Assembly: GCA_963727625.1 (NCBI GenBank)
Contig: CAVSHR010000011.1
Coordinates: forward strand, 358,894 to 422,893
Direction of reading: 5' to 3'
DNA from: an uncultured delta proteobacterium
GTDB taxonomy: Bacteria > Desulfobacterota > Binatia > UBA9968
DNA: 64,000 nt
Shown here piece by piece: positions 1-63,844 of the stretch. Both the position numbers and the translations under genes were made by a program. The stretch's first letter is position 1; each line of letters starts with the position of its first letter. The notes beneath the pieces were generated by a model, which made no database searches, was not told where the DNA came from, and saw only the letters and a program-made list of their open reading frames with translations.

Positions 1-762
1 AAGGCTCGGGCCCACCCACTTGCCGGCTTTATTACGAAGTTGCGCCCACGGCATTTTATTCTGATGGGCATAGGCCAACTCTACGTAACCGATCGCGCCC
101 GGGATCTGTTTAACCGAGTTGGCGACCCCTTCATTGCCCTTGCCGCCGACGTCGCCGGGCCAATTGACCGAAGTGGCCGAACCAACCTTCTCTTTCCACT
201 CCGAGCTGACCTTGGAAAGGTAGTTCGTAAAGATGAAAGTGGTTCCCGACCCGTCCGAGCGATGCACTACGGCAATCGCCGAGTCCGGCAGCTTGACACC
301 GGGATTGATCGTCTTGATGCGGTTGTCGTTCCAGTTCTTAATTTTCTTCAAATAGATGTCGGCCAGTACTTCCGGCGTTAGCCGGAGCTTGCCGGATTGG
401 ACGCCGGGGAGATTGACGACGATCGCCTCAGCGCCCGCGACGGTGGGCACGTGAAGAACGTTGCCGCCTTTGGACTCGGACTTTTGATTGTCGCTCATGA
501 TGCCATCGGAGCCGCCAAAATCGACGGTTTGCGCCGCCAGTTGGCGGATGCCGCCGCCGGAACCGATCGATTGGTAATTGACTCTTACGCCGCAGGCCTT
601 GTTGTATTCACTGAACATCTTGGCGTAGAGCGGGTAAGGAAACGTAGCGCCCGCGCCTGTAAGCTCTTTGACTCCCTTGGTTGGGCAGCTCGCCAATGCC
701 GGTCCAGCGGTAGCGGAGACCGCCGCAATGACGACCGCCACGGCAAAATTCTTAGCTTTCAT
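1..762 (-). CDS. pstS: Phosphate ABC transporter substrate-binding protein PstS (runs off window start)
   Basis: Absent from the ORF track. Manual minus-strand translation from ATG at 762 (RBS CAGGAGG) gives GAGATFPYPLY, NYQSIGSGGG, VDFGGSD, VVHRSDGSGTT and GGKGNEGV, all hallmark PstS motifs. Confidence 0.95.
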   Translation of the reverse strand, partial: MKAKNFAVAVVIAAVSATAGPALASCPTKGVKELTGAGATFPYPLYAKMFSEYNKACGVRVNYQSIGSGGGIRQLAAQTVDFGGSDGIMSDNQKSESKGGNVLHVPTVAGAEAIVVNLPGVQSGKLRLTPEVLADIYLKKIKNWNDNRIKTINPGVKLPDSAIAVVHRSDGSGTTFIFTNYLSKVSSEWKEKVGSATSVNWPGDVGGKGNEGVANSVKQIPGAIGYVELAYAHQNKMPWAQLRNKAGKWVGPSL

Positions 763-801
763 TTAAATATCCTCCTGTTTTTAATTTGTTAAGCCTCGAT
801 T

Positions 802-839
802 GTTACAGATTGGTTACGAAACCGTTAAGCTTAGGAAAA
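802..839. promoter_or_regulatory. Pho-box-like 11-bp direct repeats upstream of pstS
   Basis: GTTAC at 802, GTTAC at 813, GTTAA at 824: exact 11-bp period. Confidence 0.7.
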
Positions 840-947
840 CACTACACAAGGGCTCCGACAACGCGATCCGGCTTTACTTACTCCGCGTGGAGATCTATGC
901 ATTTGTGTCTTTCGACGACATTGATACGAGGCCGCGGTGAAGCTGTT

Positions 948-1030
948 GTTAACACAGCGTAAAGATTAAGGTTAAGAGGGAAGAGGCGAGCCTGTGTGGG
1001 TCTATGTAGGATCCTTAACCTAAATTTAAT
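948..1030. promoter_or_regulatory. Pho-box-like repeats upstream of the kinase pair
   Basis: GTTAAC 948, GTAAAG 959, GTTAAG 971; and CTTAAC 1014, TTTAAT 1025 (11-bp spacing). Confidence 0.55.
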
Positions 1031-1117
1031 GATCGCGGACGGCTTCCGTGCTGGCCAATTGTAGGCGGTTTTTGCTATGTTTATTTCTCGACTTCATCCC
1101 ATTGGGAACAAGCATTT

Positions 1118-1852
1118 ATGGCAGGCGGAATGAAAACGTACGGCAAGCATCGATTTCCTGGGCGGCTCTTTATCGTCGAGGGGATCGACGGTTCCGGTAA
1201 GAGCACTCAGCTATCGTTGCTTAAGAAATGGCTCGAGGCGGAGGGCTACGTCGTCTATTTCAGCGAGTGGAACTCTTCGCCGTTGGTGCGCGACGTCACC
1301 AAACGCGGCAAAAAGAAAAAGATGCTCACGCCGATAACCTTCAGTTTGATTCATGCCACCGATTTCGCCGATCGCACCGAACACGACATCATCCCGCCGA
1401 TGAAAGCCGGCGCGGTGGTGCTGGCCGACCGGTATGTTTATACCGCCTTTGCGCGCGACGTGGTGCGCGGCGTGAGCCCCCAATGGGTGCGCGACCTTTA
1501 TGCCTTTGCGGTAAAACCGACGGTCGCTTTTTATTTTCGCACGCCCCTCGAGGTTGCGATGAAGCGGATCCTTGGCGGCCGAGATGCGATCAAATATTAT
1601 GAAGCGGGAATGGATCTCGGTCTGAGCGACGACATCGAAGAAAGCTTCAGACTGTTTCAAGCCCGCATCATTGATGAATACGAGAAAATGGTCGGCGAGT
1701 TCGGCCTGGTGCCGATCGACGCGACCCGTTCGATCGAGGATCAACAGGCCGAGGTGCGGCGCATCGTGACCGACGCATTGACCGGGACCAAGAGAACCAG
1801 AGTTAGAAGATGGCTCGATTTAGCTTCTTTGGCGAAGGGCTCCCAGATATAG
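1118..1852 (+). CDS. Thymidylate kinase-like protein 1 (candidate PPK3 catalytic subunit)
   Basis: Intact P-loop EGIDGSGKST and ADRY motif; polyP gene context. Confidence 0.85.
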   Translation: MAGGMKTYGKHRFPGRLFIVEGIDGSGKSTQLSLLKKWLEAEGYVVYFSEWNSSPLVRDVTKRGKKKKMLTPITFSLIHATDFADRTEHDIIPPMKAGAVVLADRYVYTAFARDVVRGVSPQWVRDLYAFAVKPTVAFYFRTPLEVAMKRILGGRDAIKYYEAGMDLGLSDDIEESFRLFQARIIDEYEKMVGEFGLVPIDATRSIEDQQAEVRRIVTDALTGTKRTRVRRWLDLASLAKGSQI

Positions 1853-2505
1853 ATCTGGCCGAGCTCAAGGGCAAGCTCATCGTTTTAGAGGGGACCGACG
1901 GCGTCGGCCGGTCGACCCATATAGGCCTGCTCAAACAGTGGCTGGAAAACCACGGCCACGCCGTGCTCGATACCGGTATGACCCGCTCGGCCCTCGCCGG
2001 CAAGCGACTCAAGCAAGCGAAGGAAGGCCACACGCTTGGCGGCATCACGATGAGCTTGTTCTATGCCACCGATTTTGCTGACCGTTTGGAAAATGAAATC
2101 ATTCCGGCTCTGCGCGCCGGTTTCGTTGTCTTGACCGATCGTTACATTTATTCGCTAATGGCGCGGGCTATCGTGCGTGGCGCCGATCCGGAATGGTTGC
2201 GCGAGGTTTACGGCTTTGCTTTGCGTCCGGATGCGGTTTTTTATCTGCGCGTGAATATCGACGATTTGGTTACGCGAGTGCTGCAAAGCACCGGCTTCGA
2301 TTACTGGGAGTCGGGCATGGATCTGCACATGGGCGATGACATGTACGAGAGCTTCGTGCGTTATCAGACATGTCTGCTGGCGGAATTTGACAAGATGGTC
2401 GAAACCCACGGTTTTGAGATCGTCGACGCCTCGGGCAGCATCGAAGAGGTGTTTGAAGACCTGCGCGAGCGCGTTGACCGGGTGGTGGCGAGAAATGGCT
2501 ACTGA
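1810..2505 (+). CDS. Thymidylate kinase-like protein 2 with degenerate P-loop (candidate PPK3 regulatory subunit)
   Basis: EGTDGVGRST (K to R) and TDRY; paralog of the upstream gene, overlapping it by 43 bp. Confidence 0.85.
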   Translation: MARFSFFGEGLPDIDLAELKGKLIVLEGTDGVGRSTHIGLLKQWLENHGHAVLDTGMTRSALAGKRLKQAKEGHTLGGITMSLFYATDFADRLENEIIPALRAGFVVLTDRYIYSLMARAIVRGADPEWLREVYGFALRPDAVFYLRVNIDDLVTRVLQSTGFDYWESGMDLHMGDDMYESFVRYQTCLLAEFDKMVETHGFEIVDASGSIEEVFEDLRERVDRVVARNGY

Positions 2506-3389
2506 TCCGTCTTTGCTTCAGCCTCTGATGCCGCCGCTTTGATCTCGTTCCACCGCTGGGCGAGTTTTTCCGCCCTATCCAATGCCTCGATCACCAGGGC
2601 TTGGTCGCGTTGCTTGTCCCGTTCCATTTCGAGCAGTAACGAGCGGCACATGCCGGGCTCTCGTGCCAAAAAACCCGGACGCCCGATGAATTTGGCGACT
2701 TGCTGTTGCAATATTCTTCGGTCATGCCAATCGCCGAGCTCGTTTTGAAGCAGCTTTAGACCCTGCAACAACGGCTTCGTCGATGAGTCGGCGAGCTCGG
2801 CGAGGGACTCGACCCGATAGCGCAGCCGTTTGCCGGCAATGCGAAAGCAGTGAATATTTTCGATTTGCGGATCAGCCTTGGCCGCGGCGAGCGCTTCGTT
2901 CCAGGCGCCAAGAGCGTCGCCGGCGCGCTGCCAAAGCAGTGCCACGTCTTCGGGCTGTTCGCCGATAGCGTCGATACAGGTCTGGGCGCGCGAAATGAAA
3001 TCTATCAACTCGTAATGTTTTAGTTCTGTGCGCGCATCGGCAATTGCTTTGGCCCGATCTTCATCAAGCCATCGCTTCACGGCTTCCCAGGCTCGGCGCA
3101 GCGCCGCGGCATTGACCGCGTCGCGCCGTTTTTCAATCAGCGCGATGCTTACATCGAGATTGCGGCAGGGGCCGAGGGCGCGCCGCGTTTGTTTCAAGAT
3201 CCGGTTCAGCTTTCGCGCCTTCGACAGCTTTGACTTCGGCAGAAAGGCGCGCACGGTTTGTTGCAGCCGGCGGCTGGCGACGCGCACATCATGGATCGTA
3301 TCCGGGGCGTCGTTCAGCAGAGCTTTGGCAAAGAGCGTTACGAACCGCTCCAGCCGCTTACGAGCCAATTTAGGCAACTTGTTTTTCAT
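2499..3389 (-). CDS. CHAD domain polyphosphate-binding protein
   Basis: IHDVRVASRRL, IHCFRIAGKRLRY and LQNELGDWHD motifs. Confidence 0.92.
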   Translation of the reverse strand: MKNKLPKLARKRLERFVTLFAKALLNDAPDTIHDVRVASRRLQQTVRAFLPKSKLSKARKLNRILKQTRRALGPCRNLDVSIALIEKRRDAVNAAALRRAWEAVKRWLDEDRAKAIADARTELKHYELIDFISRAQTCIDAIGEQPEDVALLWQRAGDALGAWNEALAAAKADPQIENIHCFRIAGKRLRYRVESLAELADSSTKPLLQGLKLLQNELGDWHDRRILQQQVAKFIGRPGFLAREPGMCRSLLLEMERDKQRDQALVIEALDRAEKLAQRWNEIKAAASEAEAKTDQ

Positions 3390-3451
3390 ATCGACAGCGT
3401 CAGTCGATTCTGCGACCCGGCGCGCAGGAGAATTTTCCCCTTGTTACTCCA

Positions 3452-3958
3452 TCATGCGAGCGCTCTCAGTTGTTTGGGGGTGAGCAAAAAGTGCAGCGCC
3501 CCGGGCGCCCCGCTTTCCAGAGATTCTATCTCTACATGGCACAACGAACCTTTCTTAAATATCAGTGTCAGGTGTTCGGGTTGCTTTGACCCGAGCAAAA
3601 ATGCCGCGGCGCCGCTCAAGAGCGGTTCGTGGCCCACGAGCAGAAGGTTTTGGCGATTCTGGTAGCGCGTCAGGCCGAACATTAAACGTTCCACTGTGCT
3701 CTCGGGAGCGAGTCCGGAAATCGCTTCGAGCAATGCTTCAATACCGAGGGTATTGGCGACGATCTCTGCAGTCTGGCGCGCGCGCAATAACGGACTGGTC
3801 AATACGGTGTCGAACGGGACGGCGAGCCGCAACAGACCTTTCGCGGCTTTGCGCATGCGTTTGACTCCCTTGTTGGTGAGCGGGCGCTCGGAATCGTGGC
3901 TGACCGACGGATCGTCTTGCGCCAGAGCGATGCCATGTCTCATCAGGTAAAGGTTCAT
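3452..3958 (-). CDS. sixA: Phosphohistidine phosphatase SixA
   Basis: LYLMRHGIA, SPLLRARQTA and LLVGHEP motifs. Confidence 0.93.
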   Translation of the reverse strand: MNLYLMRHGIALAQDDPSVSHDSERPLTNKGVKRMRKAAKGLLRLAVPFDTVLTSPLLRARQTAEIVANTLGIEALLEAISGLAPESTVERLMFGLTRYQNRQNLLLVGHEPLLSGAAAFLLGSKQPEHLTLIFKKGSLCHVEIESLESGAPGALHFLLTPKQLRALA

Positions 3959-3991
3959 TGTTCTACCGTCGACACCTTTTGCGGCTCCGGA

Positions 3992-4238
3992 TCACGCCAC
4001 ATTGCGCCAGTAATCCAAAAACAGCGCGAACACCCGGGTGTCGATTTCGTCTCGCTCGTTGCGCAGCGACGCAAAGTCCGGCGCGCCGGGTTTTGCTGTC
4101 TTGAATGGCTCGCCGATGGGCCAATTCTCGTTCCTGGCGCGGCGCCAGATGCTTGGCCGTCGCTTCCGTGATCTGGCTCAGGCAGGCATTGTCGTCACAA
4201 AGAAATAAGATGTTTCTGTCGCGAATTTCGCGGCGCAT
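3992..4238 (-). pseudogene. LMW-PTP/ArsC-like protein with internal deletion and frameshift
   Basis: N-terminus ILFLCDDNACLSQ; C-terminus in another frame WPIGEP..LRNERDEIDTRVFALF*; the middle is missing. Confidence 0.7.
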
Positions 4239-4253
4239 AAATCCTCCTAAAGT

Positions 4254-5801
4254 TTAGCGAGATCGCACTGTTTTGGCTTTCTTAAACTCAAGCTCCCGAT
4301 TAAAGACCTCTCGAATGAGCTTGCCCTTTTTACTCGCCCAGCTGATTTCATCGTTTACGTTTGCCGGAGATGCGATGGCGAGCGTCAGGCCTTTTGATTT
4401 ATAAAGGGTGCAGCTTACGGACTCGACGCGCTGTTCGCGGCGGAAATCGAGAGCGTCGGCGACGCGCAGCAGCGAACTGAGCTTGCGCACGACATCCTGG
4501 TTGGCGGGGGAGAGCTGGCTGAATCCCAAATGTTTTTGGCTGGGATGGGCTTTGCGGTGATAACGCGCGATATTGGCGACCAGTTCGAGGTCGAGCTTGC
4601 TAAAGGATTTCATGCCCGAGCTCTTGATCAGATAGTACGAGTGCTTGTGGTGCTTGGCATCGGCGATGAACAGGCCGATATCGTGCAACATCGCGCTCGC
4701 GTGCAAGATGCCGGCGTATCTTTCCGGCAACTTGTGCAGCCCTTGGAGTTGATAAAACAAATTGACGGCAAGTTGGCTGACATGCCGGCAGTGAGCCGCG
4801 TCGTAAAAATATTTCTGGCAAACCTGATCGAGTGATTCGGCCCGGTCGGCATCCGGGTGCCACGCGCCGGATCCCGCGTAGGAGCGCTGGAGCAAATCGA
4901 TCATCAAGCCGTCGCGCAGGCCGCGCCGCGACACGAAAAGGTATTCGAGCTCGATGGCCGCCATCACCTCGTGCAAAACGATGCCGCCCGCGACGATGAT
5001 ATCGGCGCGCTTCGGATCACCGCTGATCATTTCCGCGCGCTCCCGGGTCGACCGGGTCATCAGCAGATCGAGGAGTGCTTTCAAGCGCTGTCGCCGCAGG
5101 ACGATCAATGACCCTGATTTGTTTTCGCCGCCGGCTCTGGTGTCGGTTTCGGCGAGGGCTGTGATTGTACCGCCGCTGCCGAACGCCATGGTGAATTTTT
5201 CTTTTTGAATGCGTCGGGTCACGGATTGAAGCTGATCTCTAACATGCTGTCGTAAGCTTTTGATATCTTTAGAATGCGCTGGGTCAGCCGTAAAGAATCC
5301 TTCGGTCAAGCGAACCGCGCCCAAAGGCAGGCTGAACAGACAGAAAGTATTGGTGGCATCGGCGACCGTCAATTCGACGCTGCCGCCGCCGATATCGAGA
5401 AACAAACCGAGCGGTAAATGAAAGCGTAATCCGCTCATGATGCCGAGGCTGATCAGCCGAGCTTCATTCTCCTCGGACAAAACCTCCAGCGAAACGCCCG
5501 CGGCCTTGGCGCGGTTGATAAATTTGCGGCTATCGGAGGCCTCGCGCAGCGCGCTGGTGCCCGCCGCCCGAATCGCTTTAACGCGGAAGCGGTCGGCGGC
5601 GCTCTTGAAATCTTTCAGCACCTGAAGTGCCGCGTCGACCGACCGGGGATCGAGCTTGCCGGTCTGAAAAACCTCCCGCCCGAGCCGAACCGGCCGGCGG
5701 TCCTGCTCGACGATGCGATAGTGTTTTGGGTGATCGACGGCGGCGATCTGCCAGCGTATGGCATTGCTGCCGACGTCAATGACTGCGAAATGTTCCGACA
5801 T
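4254..5801 (-). CDS. ppx: Exopolyphosphatase Ppx/GppA with HD domain
   Basis: VIDVGSNAIR, GTSALREA, DIGGGSVE, GLRDG and LHDIG motifs. Confidence 0.93.
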   Translation of the reverse strand: MSEHFAVIDVGSNAIRWQIAAVDHPKHYRIVEQDRRPVRLGREVFQTGKLDPRSVDAALQVLKDFKSAADRFRVKAIRAAGTSALREASDSRKFINRAKAAGVSLEVLSEENEARLISLGIMSGLRFHLPLGLFLDIGGGSVELTVADATNTFCLFSLPLGAVRLTEGFFTADPAHSKDIKSLRQHVRDQLQSVTRRIQKEKFTMAFGSGGTITALAETDTRAGGENKSGSLIVLRRQRLKALLDLLMTRSTRERAEMISGDPKRADIIVAGGIVLHEVMAAIELEYLFVSRRGLRDGLMIDLLQRSYAGSGAWHPDADRAESLDQVCQKYFYDAAHCRHVSQLAVNLFYQLQGLHKLPERYAGILHASAMLHDIGLFIADAKHHKHSYYLIKSSGMKSFSKLDLELVANIARYHRKAHPSQKHLGFSQLSPANQDVVRKLSSLLRVADALDFRREQRVESVSCTLYKSKGLTLAIASPANVNDEISWASKKGKLIREVFNRELEFKKAKTVRSR

Positions 5802-5848
5802 CAGTGGGTTCTCATATCATAAACGCCTAGGAGCTTGGCGTGTTGATC

Positions 5849-5887
5849 GTTACGATTCAATTAAATATCGGTGAAGTTTTTGTTAAT
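5849..5887. promoter_or_regulatory. Pho-box-like repeats upstream of the ppx operon
   Basis: GTTAC 5849, ATTAA 5860, GTGAA 5871, GTTAA 5882: 11-bp period. Confidence 0.65.
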
Positions 5888-6243
5888 GCCTCTCATCGAT
5901 CCAAAATGCCAAATCAGATTCCATTATAGTTTTGGGTATTTTTGATCACTCACTAAAGCGTCTTAATCATTTTAGTAAATCACTTCTTGCCATCGCAGAA
6001 AAGCCGTAAGAGCCACTTCCTGCCCATTCCGCTCGACCGCTTATAGCCGCCGCTTTGCTTTGGGTAGCCTGCGATAAAGTTTCATTCCACTTCAGCCAGC
6101 AAGGTTAGAAGCTTAAGTCCTGTTTCAAAAGAGTGAGACTCTTTACGCATAATTTATCGATTCGTCACTAAAGCGTAATCCCGCAGGTTTATTCATACTG
6201 GGTGCGGTTAAACTATGAGAAAAAATGTATTTGTATTGGCAAC

Positions 6244-6653
6244 ATGGTCCGACTATTGACGCTCGTTTTGTTTGCCTGGAGCGCGGCTCGGGCATTCGCA
6301 AGCGACGTCGATCAGCGCATCCAAGATCTTGAGGAGCGGGTCGGGCAATTGAAGCCACTAGAAATCGAGATCGAGCAACTAAAGGCCGAGCAAATCGAAA
6401 TAAAAAAAGAAGCGACCGCCGCGGCGACCGGATTCTGCTGCGCGAGTAGGATCTATTTTATTTCATCGCGCCGCGCATGAGCGTGGGCATACATGTGTTA
6501 TGGTGCGACGCATCCAACCTGCGCAACGACCGCAACCAAGCTGCCCATAACTGAGGGATTTGTAAATCGAGCGAAATCGGCACAAGTAACTGCCCGTCGG
6601 GCATCGGTGGGGATTGGATAGACGTGATCTTGAACTTCAGATATCAATTCTGA
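6244..6653 (+). pseudogene. Outer-membrane porin remnant (possibly phosphate-selective) with large internal deletion
   Basis: Signal peptide plus coiled coil (EQIEIKKEATAAA), then fragments VLWCDASNL and GGDWIDVILNFRYQF* (terminal Phe of a beta-barrel). Confidence 0.6.
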
Positions 6654-7847: not shown

Positions 7848-8652
7848 TTAGTCGTCATCTTCAACGTTGCGGGACGCTTCGATAGTCGGGTCGACATACC
7901 TCGCAAGCAACTGACCGCGCTCGACAAAACATTTTCGAAGGCGCCCTTGCCCCAATAGGCCAATTGCCAGGATTCGCCCTTATGGGGACCGCTAGCGACA
8001 TGCGCAAACGCCCGGCCTGCATCGTTCTCTTCCCGTTCAAAAAAATTCGATCCGACGTTCCCACGACGGTTTTCCCCTTGCGATAGCCAAGGGCGCTGAC
8101 CGCCGGTAGATCGGCCGAACAGAAACGTTGCCAGGCTGTTGTGCCGGGGACGTAAGAAGAGGTTGCAACGTTCCAGTTGTAAACTTTGACCGGCGAATCG
8201 GTGAGATCTTGTCCGTTGATGACTTCGAGGGTGCGCCGGTCGATCGTCCATTGTGAAACAAACGCACCTTTGGAGCCATGCTCTCGGACGGTGCCGACTA
8301 TGGAGCCCAATTCATGGTTCATGAGCAGGGTGAACTGATGGGCGGCGTCGGATTTTCCTTTGTTTCCTTCCGACCCATCTTTACGTCCCTTTTCCAGCTC
8401 GATGTTTCTAAAGGCGCCCAACCCGTCCGGAATGCCGACCATTTTGTAGCCGTTTCCCGATGCCAGGTCTTTGACCGTCAGGATCGATACCGTTTTGACG
8501 TCGACCATCGACGGCAAAAGATACGGCTCCACCGTAGTGTTCGTACCGATATTCTGTGCCGGCACCGGATTGGCGGTCAAACCCAAAGCGGCGGCACTCA
8601 AAATCGAGCGCGCGATAATCCGCCGGCTCCGATCATAAATTTTATTGTACAT
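7848..8652 (-). pseudogene. Secreted PhoX/DUF839-like alkaline phosphatase remnant (frameshift plus internal deletion)
   Basis: Signal peptide, GIPDGLGA, MNHEL, FCSADL, frameshifted NGEE, FENV, then directly the C-terminal VERGQLL..*. Confidence 0.7.
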
Positions 8653-8837: not shown

Positions 8838-8872
8838 TTGACTACGCTATTATTTCGATGATACTGGAAATA
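8838..8872 (+). promoter_or_regulatory. ars promoter with ArsR operator
   Basis: TTGACT (8838) and GATACT (8860); imperfect palindrome TATTTCGA-N6-TGGAAATA at 8851-8872 abutting the ATG. Confidence 0.6.
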
Positions 8873-9255
8873 TGGAAATAAAGACGGCGGTGATGGCTCT
8901 GGCCGCTCTGGCCCAGGAAACGCGACTGTCGATTTTTCGTCTGCTTGTCGAGGCGGGGCGAGACGGCGAATCGGTCGGGCGCATCGGTGAGCGTTTGAAG
9001 GTCCCGGGCGCAACTCTGTCATTCCACTTAAAGGAACTCGCTCGCGCCGGCTTGGTGTCCGCACGACAAGAGAGGCAATTTATCTATTACGCGGTAGACT
9101 TCGGACGCATGGCAGAGCTCATGACTTATCTCACGCAGAATTGCTGCCAGGGGATGCCGAAGGAATGTCTCACAGTTGTCGAGACGGCACTGGGACGCTG
9201 CTGTCCGCGTCCAATTATTACCGTTAAGCGCAAAGTAAAAGGGGCTCGCTCGTGA
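8872..9255 (+). CDS. arsR: ArsR transcriptional repressor (C-terminal CC type)
   Basis: ALAQETRL, TLSFHLKEL and NCC motifs; first gene of the ars operon. Confidence 0.92.
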   Translation: MEIKTAVMALAALAQETRLSIFRLLVEAGRDGESVGRIGERLKVPGATLSFHLKELARAGLVSARQERQFIYYAVDFGRMAELMTYLTQNCCQGMPKECLTVVETALGRCCPRPIITVKRKVKGARS

Positions 9256-9314
9256 AGGGCGTTGACGGACGTCATTTCCTTATCGGCACCGGTGGGGCCT
9301 CGAAGGAGCGTTGA

Positions 9315-9812
9315 ATGGAACTTGAATCTTTCAATGTTCTATTTCTCTGCACCGGCAATTCCGCGCGCAGCATCATGGCCGAGGCAATCCTCACCGCGCT
9401 TGGAAAAAATAAGTTCAACGCTTTCAGCGCCGGAAGCCGTCCGACCGGGCGCGTGAATCCTCTTGCGCTGGAGCTCCTTGAAAAGAATCGGTTTCCCACC
9501 GGAAGGCTGCGCGGCAAAGACTGGAAGGAATTCTCCGGGCCCGGCGCGCCGTTCATGCATTTTGTCTTTACGGTATGTGACCAGGCAGCGGCTGAACCTT
9601 GCCCGGTATGGCCGGGACAACCGATGACCGCACATTGGGGTGTTGCCGATCCGGCGGCGGCCCAGGGCGCCGAAGAGATCAAACGAAAGGCTTTTCTAAA
9701 GGCCTACACGGATCTTCATCGGCGCATATCGTTGTTTGTCAGCCTGCCGTTCGACAAACTTACCGCTCTCGCCCTCAAAGAAAAACTTGACGAAATCGGG
9801 CGCGCGCAATGA
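9315..9812 (+). CDS. arsC: Arsenate reductase ArsC (LMW-PTP fold)
   Basis: FLCTGNSARS, TVCD, CPVWPG and HWGVADP motifs. Confidence 0.93.
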   Translation: MELESFNVLFLCTGNSARSIMAEAILTALGKNKFNAFSAGSRPTGRVNPLALELLEKNRFPTGRLRGKDWKEFSGPGAPFMHFVFTVCDQAAAEPCPVWPGQPMTAHWGVADPAAAQGAEEIKRKAFLKAYTDLHRRISLFVSLPFDKLTALALKEKLDEIGRAQ

Positions 9813-9914
9813 TTTTGGATAGAGTGTTCGCAGCGCCAGTTTTGCCGACCCTGGTTCGGGCCTTCGCGAAGGAAAACCGTGAAGTGGACGCAAGATTATC
9901 TTAAGTAGGATTTC

Positions 9915-10967
9915 ATGGTTCAAGAAGACAGCTTTGTCCTACGACTCTCGTGCCTAGACCGCTATCTCACGCTGTGGATTTTTCTGGCGATGGCGGCGGG
10001 GGTCATCAACGGCTTTTTGTTTCCGACCGCGGTCCATGGCCTGAGCGCGATGGTATCGGTTGGGACGACCAACGTACCGATCGCGATCGGCCTGATTTTG
10101 ATGATGTATCCGCCCTTGGCAAAGGTGCGTTATGAGGAAATGGGCGACGTGTTTCGCAACTGGAAAGTGCTCGGTGTGTCGCTGTTTCAGAACTGGGTGA
10201 TCGGTCCCGTGCTCATGTTCGCGCTGGCGATCATATTTTTGCGCGATTACCCGGAATATATGACCGGTCTCATTCTCATTGGCCTGGCGCGTTGCATTGC
10301 GATGGTTATCGTATGGAACGAACTCGCCAGGGGGGACAATGAATACGCCGCGGGCTTGGTGGCGTTCAACAGCGTGTTCCAGGTGCTGTTTTACAGCCTC
10401 TATGCCTGGGTGTTTATCACCGTACTGCCGACTTGGTTCGGTGTAAGCGCTTCGATCGTGAATATCACCATCGGGGCGATCGCCCAAAGCGTGTTCATCT
10501 ACCTGGGAATCCCGTTCATTGCGGGTTTTCTGACCCGCTTCTTTCTCGTTCGCCTGAAAGGTAAGGATTGGTACCAATCGGCTTTTGTTCCGAAAATCAG
10601 CCCGCTGACGCTGGTTGCATTACTTTTTACCATCATCGTCATGTTCAGCCTCAAAGGCGAGCTGATAGTGCAACTGCCGATGGACGTCTTGCGGATTGCG
10701 ATACCGCTTCTGGTGTATTTTATCCTGATGTTCCTGATTTCTTTCTTCATGGGGCACAGCATTGGCGCGGATTACAGTAAAACCGCCACCCTGGCCTTCA
10801 CGGCTGCGAGCAATAACTTCGAGCTGGCGATTGCCGTGGCCGTGGCGGTATTCGGCATCAACAGCGGCGCGGCATTCGCCGCCGTGATCGGGCCGCTCAT
10901 CGAGGTACCCGTCATGATCGGACTGGTGAACGTGGCGTTCTTCTTACAGAAACGATTTTTCGTTTGA
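9915..10967 (+). CDS. acr3: Arsenite efflux transporter Acr3
   Basis: [29 protein letters not shown] and GPLIEVP motifs. Confidence 0.95.
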
Positions 10968-29917: not shown

Positions 29918-30087
29918 GGGGTTTCCTCCTTCACATAGGCAGCTTAGCCATTCAGCGGAGCTAAATTAATATTTCACGCATATAACTCCTAAAACCGCTC
30001 TATCAAGTTTGCCTTTGCAATTCAAACCTAAGCATAAGGGACTGATTTGATATCAGCAAAAGTTTTTGACGCAAGAAAAAAAGCCCC

Positions 30088-31404
30088 GTGGAGTGCGCCC
30101 CATTGACTGGAGAGAAAAGCAGAGAATTTGGGGTGGGTGCGATCGGCTCAACCAGCGGGCAAGATGGACCCGCAGCAAGGAGTCGGTCGATGGGAAAGCA
30201 GCGACGGAAATTCGAGGCAGGGTTCAAGCAACAGATCATCGGCGAGGTGGAGTCGGGGTTGTTAACCGTGAGCGCCGCTACTCGTAAGTATCAGATCTCG
30301 GGCAGCGTGATCGATCGGTGGCGGCAACAAGCCCGGCAAGGAACTGTTCAAGACTTCGCCAGCGTGCGGGAGAAGGCCTTGGAACCTGAGAACCGCGAGC
30401 TCAAGGAGAAGCTGGCCGAGCTGGATCTGGAAAACGCCCAGTTAAAAAAACTCGGGGACTGGCTACGGCGGCACAAAAGCGTCAGTACCTCGGTGATCAG
30501 CGCGCAGAGTTTGGCTCGATCGTCCAAGGACTTAAAATCATAAAGCTGGCATCGAGCAGTGACTACTACCGGCCGCTGACCGATCTCCAAGAGCGAGATC
30601 GAAGTGACGCTTTACTGCGTGATCAGATCGAGCGGCTCCAAGGGGAGTTTCCCGGCTACGGCTATCGGCGGTTGGGCCGGCAGCTACGGCGCGAAGGGAT
30701 TGTGGTCAACGACAAAAAGATCCGTCGCATCCAGAGGGAATACCAGCTATTTCCCATCCGCTGGCACAGTTTCAAGATCGCCAGCACCGATTCGAATCAT
30801 GGGTACAAGATTTATCCGAATTTGCTCAGGGGGAAAGACTCTGACGGGAATCAATCAGGTCTGGGTAGCGGACCTCGCCTACATCCGGATCTTGACGGGG
30901 TTTGTCTTTCTGGCGGCCATCCTGGATCGATATTCCCGTAAGGTCATCGGTTGGGCGATTTCCAAACGAATCGATGCCGAGCTGGGCTTGGCAGCTTTGA
31001 AAACCGCTCTGGAGACACGAAAGCCCCCGCCTGGCTGTATTCACCACTGTGATCGCGGGGTGCAGTACGCCCCTGGCGGGAATATATCGCCCTGCTCGAA
31101 GCGGCCAACATGCAGATCAGCATGTCGAGAACCGCCCATCCCTACGACAACGCCCACATGGAATCGTTCTTTAAGACGCTAAAATACCAAGAGGTCCACC
31201 TGGCCAACTACCAAACCTACGACGATGTCCTGCAGAGGATTCCCCATTCATCGAGGAGGTGTATAACAGCAAACGACTGCATTCGGCCCTGGGGTATCTA
31301 CCGCCAAAGGAATACGATATGGCACTTCGATCAACCACAAAAACTACTGCTCGCCCCTCCCTCAAATCTCGCTGAAATCTCTCCAGCCGAAGGGCGCAGT
31401 CCAC
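30088..31404 (+). mobile_element. IS3 family element, copy 1 (OrfA 30190-30543; OrfB frameshifted)
   Basis: IRs GTGGAGTGCGCCCC..CTGGAGAGA and TCTCTCCAGCC..GGGCGCAGTCCAC; WVAD, DRGVQY and DNAHMESFFKTLK motifs. Confidence 0.92.
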
Positions 31405-62269: not shown

Positions 62270-62525
62270 CGGAACCTGTCAATGAAATGAGACACACCCG
62301 GTTCAGAAATTACTGTACAAGATCGTCGCTCAGCTGATTTTCATCCCTACCCAAGATCCCTTCCCGATGGCTGATCGTTGGATATAAGGCAATTGTGAAA
62401 GCCGTTTTTCTGCTCGATGTCGATCATCGAGGGATTGACGACCTTTATGCTCTCGGTCGAAGGGATTTCTTTGGGTTTGTTGATCCACACCGCTGTCGGT
62501 AACAGAGCGGGCTGAGGAAGGTGTC
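62270..62525 (-). mobile_element. 3' remnant of a different IS3-like element
   Basis: Transposase tail PQPALLPTAVWINKP; terminal repeat-like GTGTCTCATTTCATTGACAGGTTCCG. Confidence 0.55.
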
Positions 62526-63844
62526 GTGGAGTGCGCCCCATTGACTGGAGAGAAAAGCAGAGAATTTGAGGTGGGTGCGATCGGCTCAACCAGCGGGCAA
62601 GATGGACCCGCAGCAAGGAGTCGGTCGATGGGAAAGCAGCGACGGAAATTCGAGGCAGGGTTCAAGCAACAGATCATCGGCGAGGTGGAGTCGGGGTTGT
62701 TAACCGTGAGCGCCGCTACTCGTAAGTATCAGATCTCGGGCAGCGTGATCGATCGGTGGCGGCAACAAGCCCGGCAGGGAACTGTTCAAGACTTTGCCAG
62801 CGTGCGGGAGAAGGCCTTGGAACGTGAGAACCGCGAGCTCAAGGAGAAGCTGGCCGAGCTGGATCTGGAAAACGCCCAGTTAAAAAAACTCGGGGACTGG
62901 CTACGGCGGCACAAAAGCGTCAGTACCTCGGTGATCAGCGCGCAGAGTTTGGCTCGATCGTCCAAGGACTTAAAATCATGAAGCTGGCATCGAGCAGTGA
63001 CTACTACCGGCCGCTGACCGATCTCCAAGAGCGAGATCGAAGTGACGCTTTACTGCGTGATCAGATCGAGCGGCTCCAAGGGGAGTTTCCCGGCTACGGC
63101 TATCGGCGGTTGGGCCGGCAGCTACGGCGCGAAGGGATTGTGGTCAACGACAAAAAGATCCGTCGCATCCAGAGGGAATACCAGCTATTTCCCATCCGCT
63201 GGCACAGTTTCAAGATCGCCAGCACCGATTCGAATCATGGGTACAAGATTTATCCGAATTTGCTCAGGGGGAAAGACTCTGACGGGAATCAATCAGGTCT
63301 GGGTAGCGGACATCGCCTACATCCGGATCTTGACGGGGTTTGTCTTTCTGGCGGCCATCCTGGATCGATATTCCCGTAAGGTCATCGGTTGGGCGATTTC
63401 CAAACGAATCGATGCCGAGCTGGGCTTGGCAGCTTTGAAAACCGCTCTGGAGACACGAAAGCCCCCGCCTGGCTGTATTCACCACTGTGATCGCGGGGTG
63501 CAGTACGCCCCTGGCGGGAATATATCGCCCTGCTCGAAGCGGCCAACATGCAGATCAGCATGTCGAGAACCGCCAATCCCTACGACAACGCCCACATGGA
63601 ATCGTTCTTTAAGACGCTAAAATACCAAGAGGTCCACCTGGCCAACTACCAGACCTACGACGATGTCCTGCAGAGGATTCCCCATTTCATCGAGCAGGTG
63701 TATAACAGCAAACGACTGCATTCGGCCCTGGGGTATCTACCGCCAAAGGGATACGAGATGGCACTTCGATCAACCACAAAAACTACCCCTCGCCCCTCCC
63801 TCAAATCTCGCTGAAATCTCTCCAGCCGAAGGGGCGCAGTCCAC
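62526..63844 (+). mobile_element. IS3 family element, copy 2 (OrfA 62628-62981; OrfB 62978-63814 with two frameshifts)
   Basis: Near-identical to 30088-31404 with the same IRs. Confidence 0.93.

Follow-up and report, generated by a model that had tools for sequence, protein, structure and literature searches.

Polyphosphate (polyP) kinases of family 3 (PPK3) have been characterised in one archaeon only. In Sulfolobus acidocaldarius the operon sixA-ppx-saci_2019-saci_2020-CHAD contains two adjacent genes of the thymidylate kinase (Tmk) fold, whose products form the enzyme SaPPK3 (Hofmann et al., J Biol Chem 2026; PMC12995831). According to that article, Saci_2019 (cPPK3) makes polyP from ATP and has no dTMP kinase activity, Saci_2020 (rPPK3) is inactive alone and boosts the activity with a maximum at a 1:1 ratio, and the heteromer is alpha2beta2. 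The reaction is reversible and favours the production of ATP out of ADP and polyP; ADP is the preferred acceptor and GDP is accepted at reduced activity. Neither protein forms dTDP, and the real dTMP kinase of the organism is Saci_0893. Here we analyse a tandem pair of genes, tmkA and tmkB, found in a stretch of 64,000 nucleotides (hereafter the window) of an uncultured bacterium of the Binatia (assembly GCA_963727625.1, contig CAVSHR010000011.1), and we conclude, with good confidence, that they probably encode the two subunits of a PPK3.

The PPK3 family and its bacterial operons are already in print, since operons with ppx, SixA, CHAD and PstS neighbours have been predicted in bacteria (PMC12995831), and the pair of the window is a further member. 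The abstract of the same article speaks of "a few bacteria" and its text of a mainly bacterial clade, and a preprint mentions "only few bacterial homologues" (10.1101/2024.08.28.610084). What the present analysis adds is a rule that recognises the partner subunit by a Lys-to-Arg change, a view of how widely the family occurs in bacteria, the fusion partners of the family, and a shared repeat architecture before three transcription units.

Two further systems are useful for comparison. Both proteins of the window find their best match, in sequence as in structure, in ST1543/STK_15430 of Sulfurisphaera tokodaii (PDB 2plr, 4nzy, 4rzx, 5h70), which was deposited and originally described as a dTMP kinase; the protein of entries 2plr/5h70 is named as a cPPK3 homologue (PMC12995831). 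It is a solved catalytic-type subunit; our searches of the PDB with tmkA and tmkB returned no structure of a heteromer. In two-domain class II PPK2 enzymes, such as PA3455 of Pseudomonas aeruginosa, an active kinase module is combined with an inactive paralogous module that is presumed to serve oligomerisation (PMC12995831). This resembles the PPK3 pair in its division into an active and an inactive paralogous part, and differs from it in belonging to another P-loop kinase family and in being fused in one chain.

Like the Sulfolobus locus, the window has tandem Tmk-fold paralogues with the catalytic gene first, ppx, sixA and CHAD genes as neighbours, a separate housekeeping Tmk in the genome, and products that fall in the same two clades. 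Unlike that locus, it belongs to a bacterial host, is arranged in convergent and divergent units and not in one operon, has a partner subunit that keeps the DRX arginine and shows a P-loop Lys-to-Arg replacement, and is accompanied by two PPK2 genes in the genome; moreover, the activity of SaPPK3 was measured, whereas the pair of the window is known from its sequence. The features of the locus are the following, in window coordinates:

1-762, minus strand: 5' part of pstS, the gene running past the start of the window (TIGR00975, 312.8 bits).
800-830, plus strand: repeat block b1, GTTAC-N6-GTTAC-N6-GTTAA, three direct-repeat units with an 11-bp period.
937-976, plus strand: repeat block b2 in the middle of the spacer, GTGAA/GTTAA/GTAAA/GTTAA units in steps of 11-12 bp.
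1013-1031, plus strand: repeat block b3, CTTAAC-N5-TTTAAT, two units.
1118-1852, plus strand: tmkA, 244 residues, predicted cPPK3 orthologue of the PPK3 A clade, with P-loop GIDGSGKS and DRY.
1810-2505, plus strand: tmkB, 231 residues, predicted rPPK3 orthologue of the PPK3 B clade, with P-loop GTDGVGRS and DRY.
2499-3389, minus strand: CHAD-domain protein, 296 residues (PF05235, 107.6 bits).
3452-3958, minus strand: sixA-type histidine phosphatase, 168 residues (TIGR00249, 105.4 bits, cut-off 74.5).
3963-4238, minus strand: remnant of a low-molecular-weight (LMW) phosphatase-like gene, an open reading frame (ORF) of 91 residues, assigned by comparison with the intact copy in locus L007.
4254-5801, minus strand: ppx, exopolyphosphatase with a C-terminal HD-like domain III, 515 residues (PF02541, 187.2 bits; PF21447, 99.1 bits).
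5849-5886, plus strand: four repeat units upstream of ppx, GTTAC-N6-ATTAA-N6-GTGAA-N6-GTTAA, with an exact 11-bp period.

The genes tmkA and tmkB overlap by 43 nt. Four minus-strand ORFs (ppx, the 91-residue ORF, sixA and CHAD) converge on them, the 3' ends of tmkB and the CHAD gene overlapping by 7 nt, and pstS diverges from tmkA across a spacer of 355 bp. GC content is even over the region (0.51-0.58). The ppx product scores 249.3 bits against TIGR03706, under its cut-off of 307. Outside the window, pstS is followed downstream by pstC, pstA, pstB and phoU (295.4, 269.5, 396.5 and 237.6 bits, respectively), and directly after phoU lies a gene for a PhoB-like regulator (C11:354378-355061), which is the best PhoB-type match of the genome (269.1 bits, cut-off 296.2). 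An earlier sequence-only reading of the window had noticed two overlapping Tmk-fold paralogues, one with an intact P-loop and one with Lys replaced by Arg, convergent with ppx-sixA-CHAD and divergent from pstS; the two P-loops, the coordinates and the family searches all agree with this description, and what it stated of a heteromeric family-3 polyP kinase in Sulfolobus was accurate (PMC12995831).

Both proteins score above the threshold of the Pfam family Thymidylate_kin (tmkA 70.9 bits, tmkB 74.9 bits) and under the cut-off of 83.25 bits of the NCBIfam dTMP kinase model TIGR00041 (79.6 and 79.7 bits). Their mutual identity is 42% over 205 residues (E 3e-59). Against the PDB, tmkA matches 2plr/5h70 with 204.7 bits (E 1.4e-59) and the best canonical Tmk with 54.1 bits; for tmkB the corresponding values are 143.3 bits (2plr) and 43.2 bits. 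In terms of identity, tmkA is 47% identical to the S. tokodaii protein of 2plr/5h70 and 28% identical to the genome's own Tmk. Archaeal pairs for comparison were taken from Thermoproteota genomes, 34 of the 301 searched having a match. One of these loci, L087, was used as a tree anchor: its A-type (tmkA-like) product is identical to the S. tokodaii PDB chain in 213/213 residues, and the gene downstream of it encodes a protein 32% identical to tmkB.

A quick tree of 65 rows comprised both proteins of the window, the A/B pairs of 26 loci, the divergent pairs of L077 and L078, and 7 Tmks that are canonical or distant. Its SH-aLRT (Shimodaira-Hasegawa-like approximate likelihood ratio test) supports are 95 for the A clade (29 rows), 98 for the B clade (25 rows) and 92 for both clades combined (56 rows). 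Because this run flagged long branches, a careful tree of 41 rows (38 PPK3, 3 canonical) was built after dropping 24 rows from 14 loci, namely the long-branch rows and, for speed, some others. There, in answer to the call of the sequence-only reading for a phylogeny against true Tmk, the PPK3 rows including both proteins separate from canonical Tmk with support 100/100, and tmkA and tmkB fall in the A and B clades, respectively, alongside the L087-type pair. The B clade is supported by 95/87, and its core of 17 rows, which includes tmkB, by 100/99; the A clade, with tmkA, has 80/79. In their clades tmkA and tmkB group with sequences from metagenome-assembled genomes (MAGs) labelled Candidatus Binatia and Thermodesulfobacteriota, at 86-90% identity.

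Fold comparison gives the same neighbours. In confident structure models built from 30-row alignments, with pLDDT (predicted local distance difference test) values of 88.5 for tmkA and 90.2 for tmkB, the top 8 PDB matches of both are chains of ST1543, ahead of all canonical Tmks. The target-normalised TM (template modelling) score is 0.88-0.94 over both models and 0.90-0.94 for tmkA alone, and the root-mean-square deviation is 1.6-2.3 Å for tmkA and 2.0-2.6 Å for tmkB. A predicted tmkA-tmkB complex scored 0.49, which is weak support for a heteromer, and the best of 3 controls scored 0.00. The pass mark is reached by 58/80 solved complexes and 2/110 mismatched pairs; with scores of 0.60 or less it is reached by only 7 of those 80 solved complexes and by both of the mismatches that passed. 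The prediction runs share at least 91% of their contacts, with partner pLDDT of at least 81. Custom alignments were used and Tmk homodimers are solved, so that this pass may reflect the known Tmk dimers, and the prediction does not tell a heteromer apart from Tmk-like homodimers.

The two subunits differ in their motifs. tmkA has K28 in the P-loop, DRY, R155 and K159 in the LID, and a patch rich in Lys and Arg at 64-68; tmkB keeps DRY and lacks both the basic residues of the LID and the patch. ST1543 and tmkA have the same P-loop, DRY and EWNSS stretches. In 67 paired loci (see below), the A-type gene always has the P-loop Lys and DRY (67/67 each), whereas the B-type partner outside the Sulfolobales type has P-loop Arg in 66/67 cases, the remaining ORF being truncated, and DRY in 63/67 or DRF in 4/67. 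Partners of the Sulfolobales type have DGY (9/9), with Arg (5/9) or Lys (4/9) in the P-loop. A wider set agrees for position 28, which is Lys in 84/85 A and Arg in 70/71 non-Sulfolobales B sequences. In addition, conservation of LID R155 and K159 is confined to A, position 53 carries Ser in A sequences and Arg in B sequences, and columns 60-70 hold on average 4.4 Lys or Arg residues in A versus 1.5 in B. Outside the Sulfolobales type, the Lys-to-Arg replacement in the P-loop is thus a mark of the partner subunit and gives a simple rule for annotating both subunits. Loss of the DRX arginine marks one branch and not the whole PPK3 family, because DRY or DRF is found in the non-Sulfolobales partners and DGY in all those of the Sulfolobales type.

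Some loci depart from these patterns. In two MAGs labelled Melainabacteria the second gene (L068:6657-7328, L083:6668-7378) joins the B clade at its base, and that of L068 retains both the P-loop Lys and DRY; these genes may show the partner subunit in a less diverged state. In three MAGs labelled Vicinamibacterales or Acidobacteriota (L077, L078, L080) a divergent A-type gene with P-loop GPDGSGKT precedes a much more degenerate partner having neither P-loop Lys or Arg nor DRX (VDGSRG..., AAPY), and the pair looks like a further decayed form.

From the orthology, motifs, gene context, fold and repeat conservation observed at the locus we infer an enzyme activity, a complex, a direction in vivo and a regulator. 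TmkA would be the catalytic subunit, equipped with the P-loop lysine, the DRY arginine and the arginine and lysine of the LID, and its lysine-rich patch could hold polyP. TmkB would be a non-catalytic paralogue that assembles with TmkA and activates it. By analogy with the Sulfolobus enzyme, the complex would move the terminal phosphate reversibly between ATP and polyP, favouring ATP formation from ADP and polyP and making polyP only at a high ATP/ADP ratio. The pair would work together with Ppx, which would hydrolyse polyP, with the polyP-binding CHAD protein and with SixA. Back to back with it lie pstSCAB-phoU and the PhoB-like regulator, and one phosphate-responsive regulator may serve pstS, tmkA and ppx. 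The proposal of the sequence-only reading, that the genes encode a bacterial polyP kinase with a catalytic and a regulatory subunit, is supported as a prediction by orthology, context, motifs and fold.

Several points weigh against this assignment. The A clade is only moderately supported (80/79). The stretches REPGG and AYQ of the genome's own Tmk read EWNSS and AR-D in the A type and are replaced in tmkB too, which would count in favour of a PPK3 only if those stretches are the dTMP contacts of canonical Tmk. The two PPK2 genes of the genome mean that exchange between polyP and nucleotides is not dependent on tmkA-tmkB. The S. tokodaii homologue was earlier reported as an unusual thymidylate kinase (preprint, 10.1101/2024.08.28.610084), and literature searches on cPPK3, rPPK3 and SaPPK3 yielded only PMC12995831, its preprint and one unrelated paper, with no assay of a bacterial PPK3 among them. 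The inactivity of rPPK3 was ascribed to a replaced DRX arginine, the main text of the article being silent on the P-loop lysine (PMC12995831). By this published mark of a regulatory subunit tmkB would not qualify, having kept DRY, so that its supposed inactivity is deduced from the P-loop Lys-to-Arg replacement and the lost basic residues of the LID. It may still bind a ligand or hold some activity, because its conserved P-loop, DRY and several arginines are kept.

These points leave some room, though a small one, for a different role of a genuine PPK3-clade pair, which we consider improbable: polyP could serve another acceptor (AMP, GDP or other), or TmkB could be a weak second site or a nucleotide or polyP sensor that sets the direction. 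GDP is in fact accepted by SaPPK3, at reduced activity (PMC12995831). tmkB keeps DRY where all nine Sulfolobales-type partners have DGY; over 30 B-type sequences there is no or almost no variation in the P-loop glycines, in the Arg replacing Lys, in DRY and in further arginines, which speaks for a retained binding site; and the second gene of L068 has both Lys and DRY. Against this, LID R155 and K159, conserved in A, are missing in B, and in P-loop kinases a change of the P-loop Lys to Arg generally abolishes phosphoryl transfer. The orthology with rPPK3 is moreover well supported (100/99), and despite its DRY tmkB is, judged by its sequence, clearly the predicted rPPK3 orthologue. Two PPK3 subunits thus remain the preferred reading, the function of the pair being predicted from orthology.

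The other kinases of the genome (assembly of 6.6 Mb, 98.45% complete, 6.3% contamination) help to judge a further alternative, in which both genes would be spare (deoxy)nucleoside monophosphate kinases and the polyP neighbourhood would be incidental. A canonical tmk, for which the sequence-only reading had suggested looking, is present at C8:284248-284841 (TIGR00041, 192.8 bits, cut-off 83.25) and is followed by holB (TIGR00678, 201.2 bits). Canonical Tmk shares with the pair of the window its fold, its P-loop and its DRX motif, and it differs from tmkA in its REPGG and AYQ stretches, in the low identity given above and in lying on the other side of the 100/100 split. A fourth, weak match to the Tmk family (Pfam 34.5 bits; TIGR00041 49.4 bits, below cut-off) looks by eye like a deoxynucleoside kinase. 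PPK1 (PF02503, PF13090) has no match in the whole genome, and PPK2 (PF03976) has two, genes on contigs C7 and C6 with open frames of 301-302 residues; the statement that neither ppk1 nor ppk2 lies in the window is therefore correct, and it does not extend to the genome in the case of ppk2.

Spare nucleotide kinases would agree with the Pfam scores of both proteins, with the name "dTMP kinase" that sources give to their homologues, and with the deposition of the S. tokodaii homologue under that name. We regard this as very unlikely, given the scores below the NCBIfam dTMP kinase cut-off, the bona fide tmk beside holB, the split from canonical Tmk, the absence of dTDP formation by Saci_2019 and Saci_2020 (PMC12995831), the A-then-B pairing in 67/72 loci across phyla, and the fusions to Ppx domain III, SPX and an inorganic pyrophosphatase domain, which link the family to phosphate metabolism.

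The family was surveyed by a scan of one genome per GTDB species, which gave at least 599 stretches, at least 535 of them confirmed and some of them canonical Tmks; the counts of pairing refer to the best 80 loci of these stretches. An A-type gene is found in 72 of the 80, the other 8 being distant, canonical or frameshifted copies, and in 67/72 loci the next gene on that strand is of the B type. Five loci are exceptions: in L021 the B gene lies upstream beyond ppx; in L050 no partner was found; the contig of L066 stops about 240 nt past the A gene; and in L068 and L083 the A query gave the second gene a slightly higher score. The fetched flanks of the 72 loci contain ppx in at least 45, sixA in at least 27, CHAD in at least 20 and any of the three in at least 49, minimum figures, since each query was a single sequence. 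For the same reason the count of PstS (0/72) is unreliable: the query missed the divergent pstS-pstC-pstA of L007, which belongs to another PstS subfamily.

The labels of the best 80 loci name about a dozen bacterial phyla (Acidobacteriota, Nitrospirota, Planctomycetota, Bacteroidota, Chloroflexota, Verrucomicrobiota, Armatimonadota, Melainabacteria and others), and archaeal labels are those of Nitrososphaerales, Thermoplasmata and further archaea. A representative library holds 397 clusters (50% identity) at E <= 1e-30. The pair is thus common in uncultured bacteria of soil and sediment. As the sequence-only reading had anticipated, sources label the homologues "dTMP kinase", and because they still do so the annotation of polyP metabolism in PPK3-bearing lineages is incomplete. 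In practical terms, a mesophilic bacterial PPK3 would be a candidate enzyme for regenerating ATP with polyP.

Within the genus of the window the distribution is patchy, the pair being present in 13/24 other genomes and missing from 11/24, and it was found in 0/16 genomes of other families of the same order. Complementarity between PPK1 and PPK3 was considered for the genus and is not seen: both occur in 8 genomes, PPK3 alone in 5, PPK1 alone in 9 and neither in 2 (n=24). Many of these genomes are incomplete MAGs, as kin they are not independent, and the class with PPK3 alone falls to 4 when one unpublished genome, G308, is left out.

Single-chain fusions among the representative proteins show which functions the kinase domains have been joined to. 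A and B are fused to each other in P0001 and P0121, and to a Ppx domain III as well in P0130, P0136 and P0139. The A-type domain is combined with DUF2252/APH in P0155, with MFS and DUF2252/APH in P0172 and P0188, with an inorganic pyrophosphatase domain in P0248, and with SPX and DUF2252/APH in P0164, which comes from a protist transcriptome (EukProt). The kinase domains of the long fusions score 197-244 bits against the A-type profile, where the genome's own Tmk scores 80, and some of them score about equally on the B-type profile. All these fusion partners point to phosphate or polyP chemistry. The combination of SPX domain, thymidylate kinase and polyphosphate was not found in the literature searched, and the SPX and MFS fusions could mean that some eukaryotes have PPK3-type polyP enzymes.

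The last line of evidence concerns regulation. When the pstS-tmkA spacer was aligned from 12 genomes, three blocks of short direct repeats with an 11-bp period stood out as conserved in otherwise diverged DNA. Block b1 is recognisable in 10/12 genomes, 38-68 nt upstream of the pstS start. Block b3 has a copy in 11/12, including two without the pstS-side blocks, 87-105 nt upstream of the tmkA start; b2 is less well conserved than both. The 6.6-Mb genome has the strict three-unit repeat of b1 at no other place (in five shuffles there were 2, 2, 0, 0 and 0 matches). Within the window nothing but b3 matches TTAAY-N6-TTAAY (0.14 expected); pattern counts of this kind are post hoc because the patterns came from the spacer itself. 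With matrices built without the window's own site, b1 ranks first genome-wide (30.8 versus 22.5 for the next) and b3 ranks 4th. Both matrices also match upstream of ppx (b1, 16.9 at 5847-5877; b3, 17.1 at 5870-5888, minus strand), where the four repeat units lie 48-85 nt before the ppx start.

The shared 11-bp repeats before pstS, tmkA and ppx suggest one phosphate-responsive regulator. Regulators of the PhoP type bind 11-nt direct repeats (PMC2275107), and control by a Pho regulator is plausible from the architecture and position of the repeats and from the neighbouring PhoB-like gene. A wider Pho regulon was sought and set aside: the next-best matrix matches lie inside ORFs or by unrelated genes (M78 peptidase-like, IS200 transposase, amidohydrolase, MiaB-like, Wzz and two family-less ORFs), and matrix and pattern scans of the genome gave no further repeat sites beside phosphate genes elsewhere. 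Scans of positions 600-6400 for promoters (2 sites versus 3.1 expected from shuffles) and for terminators (10 versus 9.0) gave nothing above the shuffles.

That the locus is decaying and non-functional in this genome, as the broken LMW-phosphatase-like gene in the ppx operon and the genomes of the genus without the pair might suggest, is hardly credible in view of two intact ORFs that are 86-93% identical to many relatives and contain every family-invariant residue, and of the conserved upstream repeats.

A more far-reaching proposal may be put forward as speculation, with only a modest chance of being right. The bacterial TmkB type would be a ligand-sensing pseudokinase, whose P-loop Arg and DRY bind a nucleotide or the end of polyP and set the direction of the reaction; a PPK3 under Pho control would be the main polyP synthase where no PPK1 is found; and the SPX and MFS fusions, of the protist and of other long proteins, would represent PPK3-type enzymes in some eukaryotes.

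As for the neighbouring ORFs, the one at 3963-4238 had been called arsC-like. The ORF is present, has no family match of its own in Pfam and NCBIfam profile searches, and is what remains of an LMW-phosphatase-like gene, whose intact counterpart of 146 residues is found in the closest named relative, L007 (L007:8878-9318; LMWPc, 45.7 bits). By tblastn, residues 1-37 of the L007 protein match window positions 4238-4128 and its residues 94-144 match 4153-4001 in a different frame, and residues 38-93 have no counterpart in the window; about 56 codons were thus lost internally together with a change of frame, and the C-terminal part survives at 4001-4153 in the other frame. The intact L007 copy has Leu at the place of the catalytic Arg in its C-X5-R loop (C-E-D-N-A-C-L-S), and since this is so even in an intact copy, the protein may bind phosphate without being catalytic. 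A set of genes for arsenic resistance is found 3 kb past ppx, at 8872-10967:

8872-9255: ArsR-type regulator.
9315-9812: candidate arsenate reductase of the LMW-phosphatase type.
9915-10967: permease of the Acr3/SBF family.

Between ppx and this set, an ORF of 263 residues (7861-8652) has a signal-peptide-like start and no Pfam family. Further along the window, an IS3-type element with HTH_Tnp_1 and rve ORFs is present in two direct copies (30087-31394 and 62525-63833), 95-99% identical and 32.4 kb apart, which could bracket a composite mobile segment.

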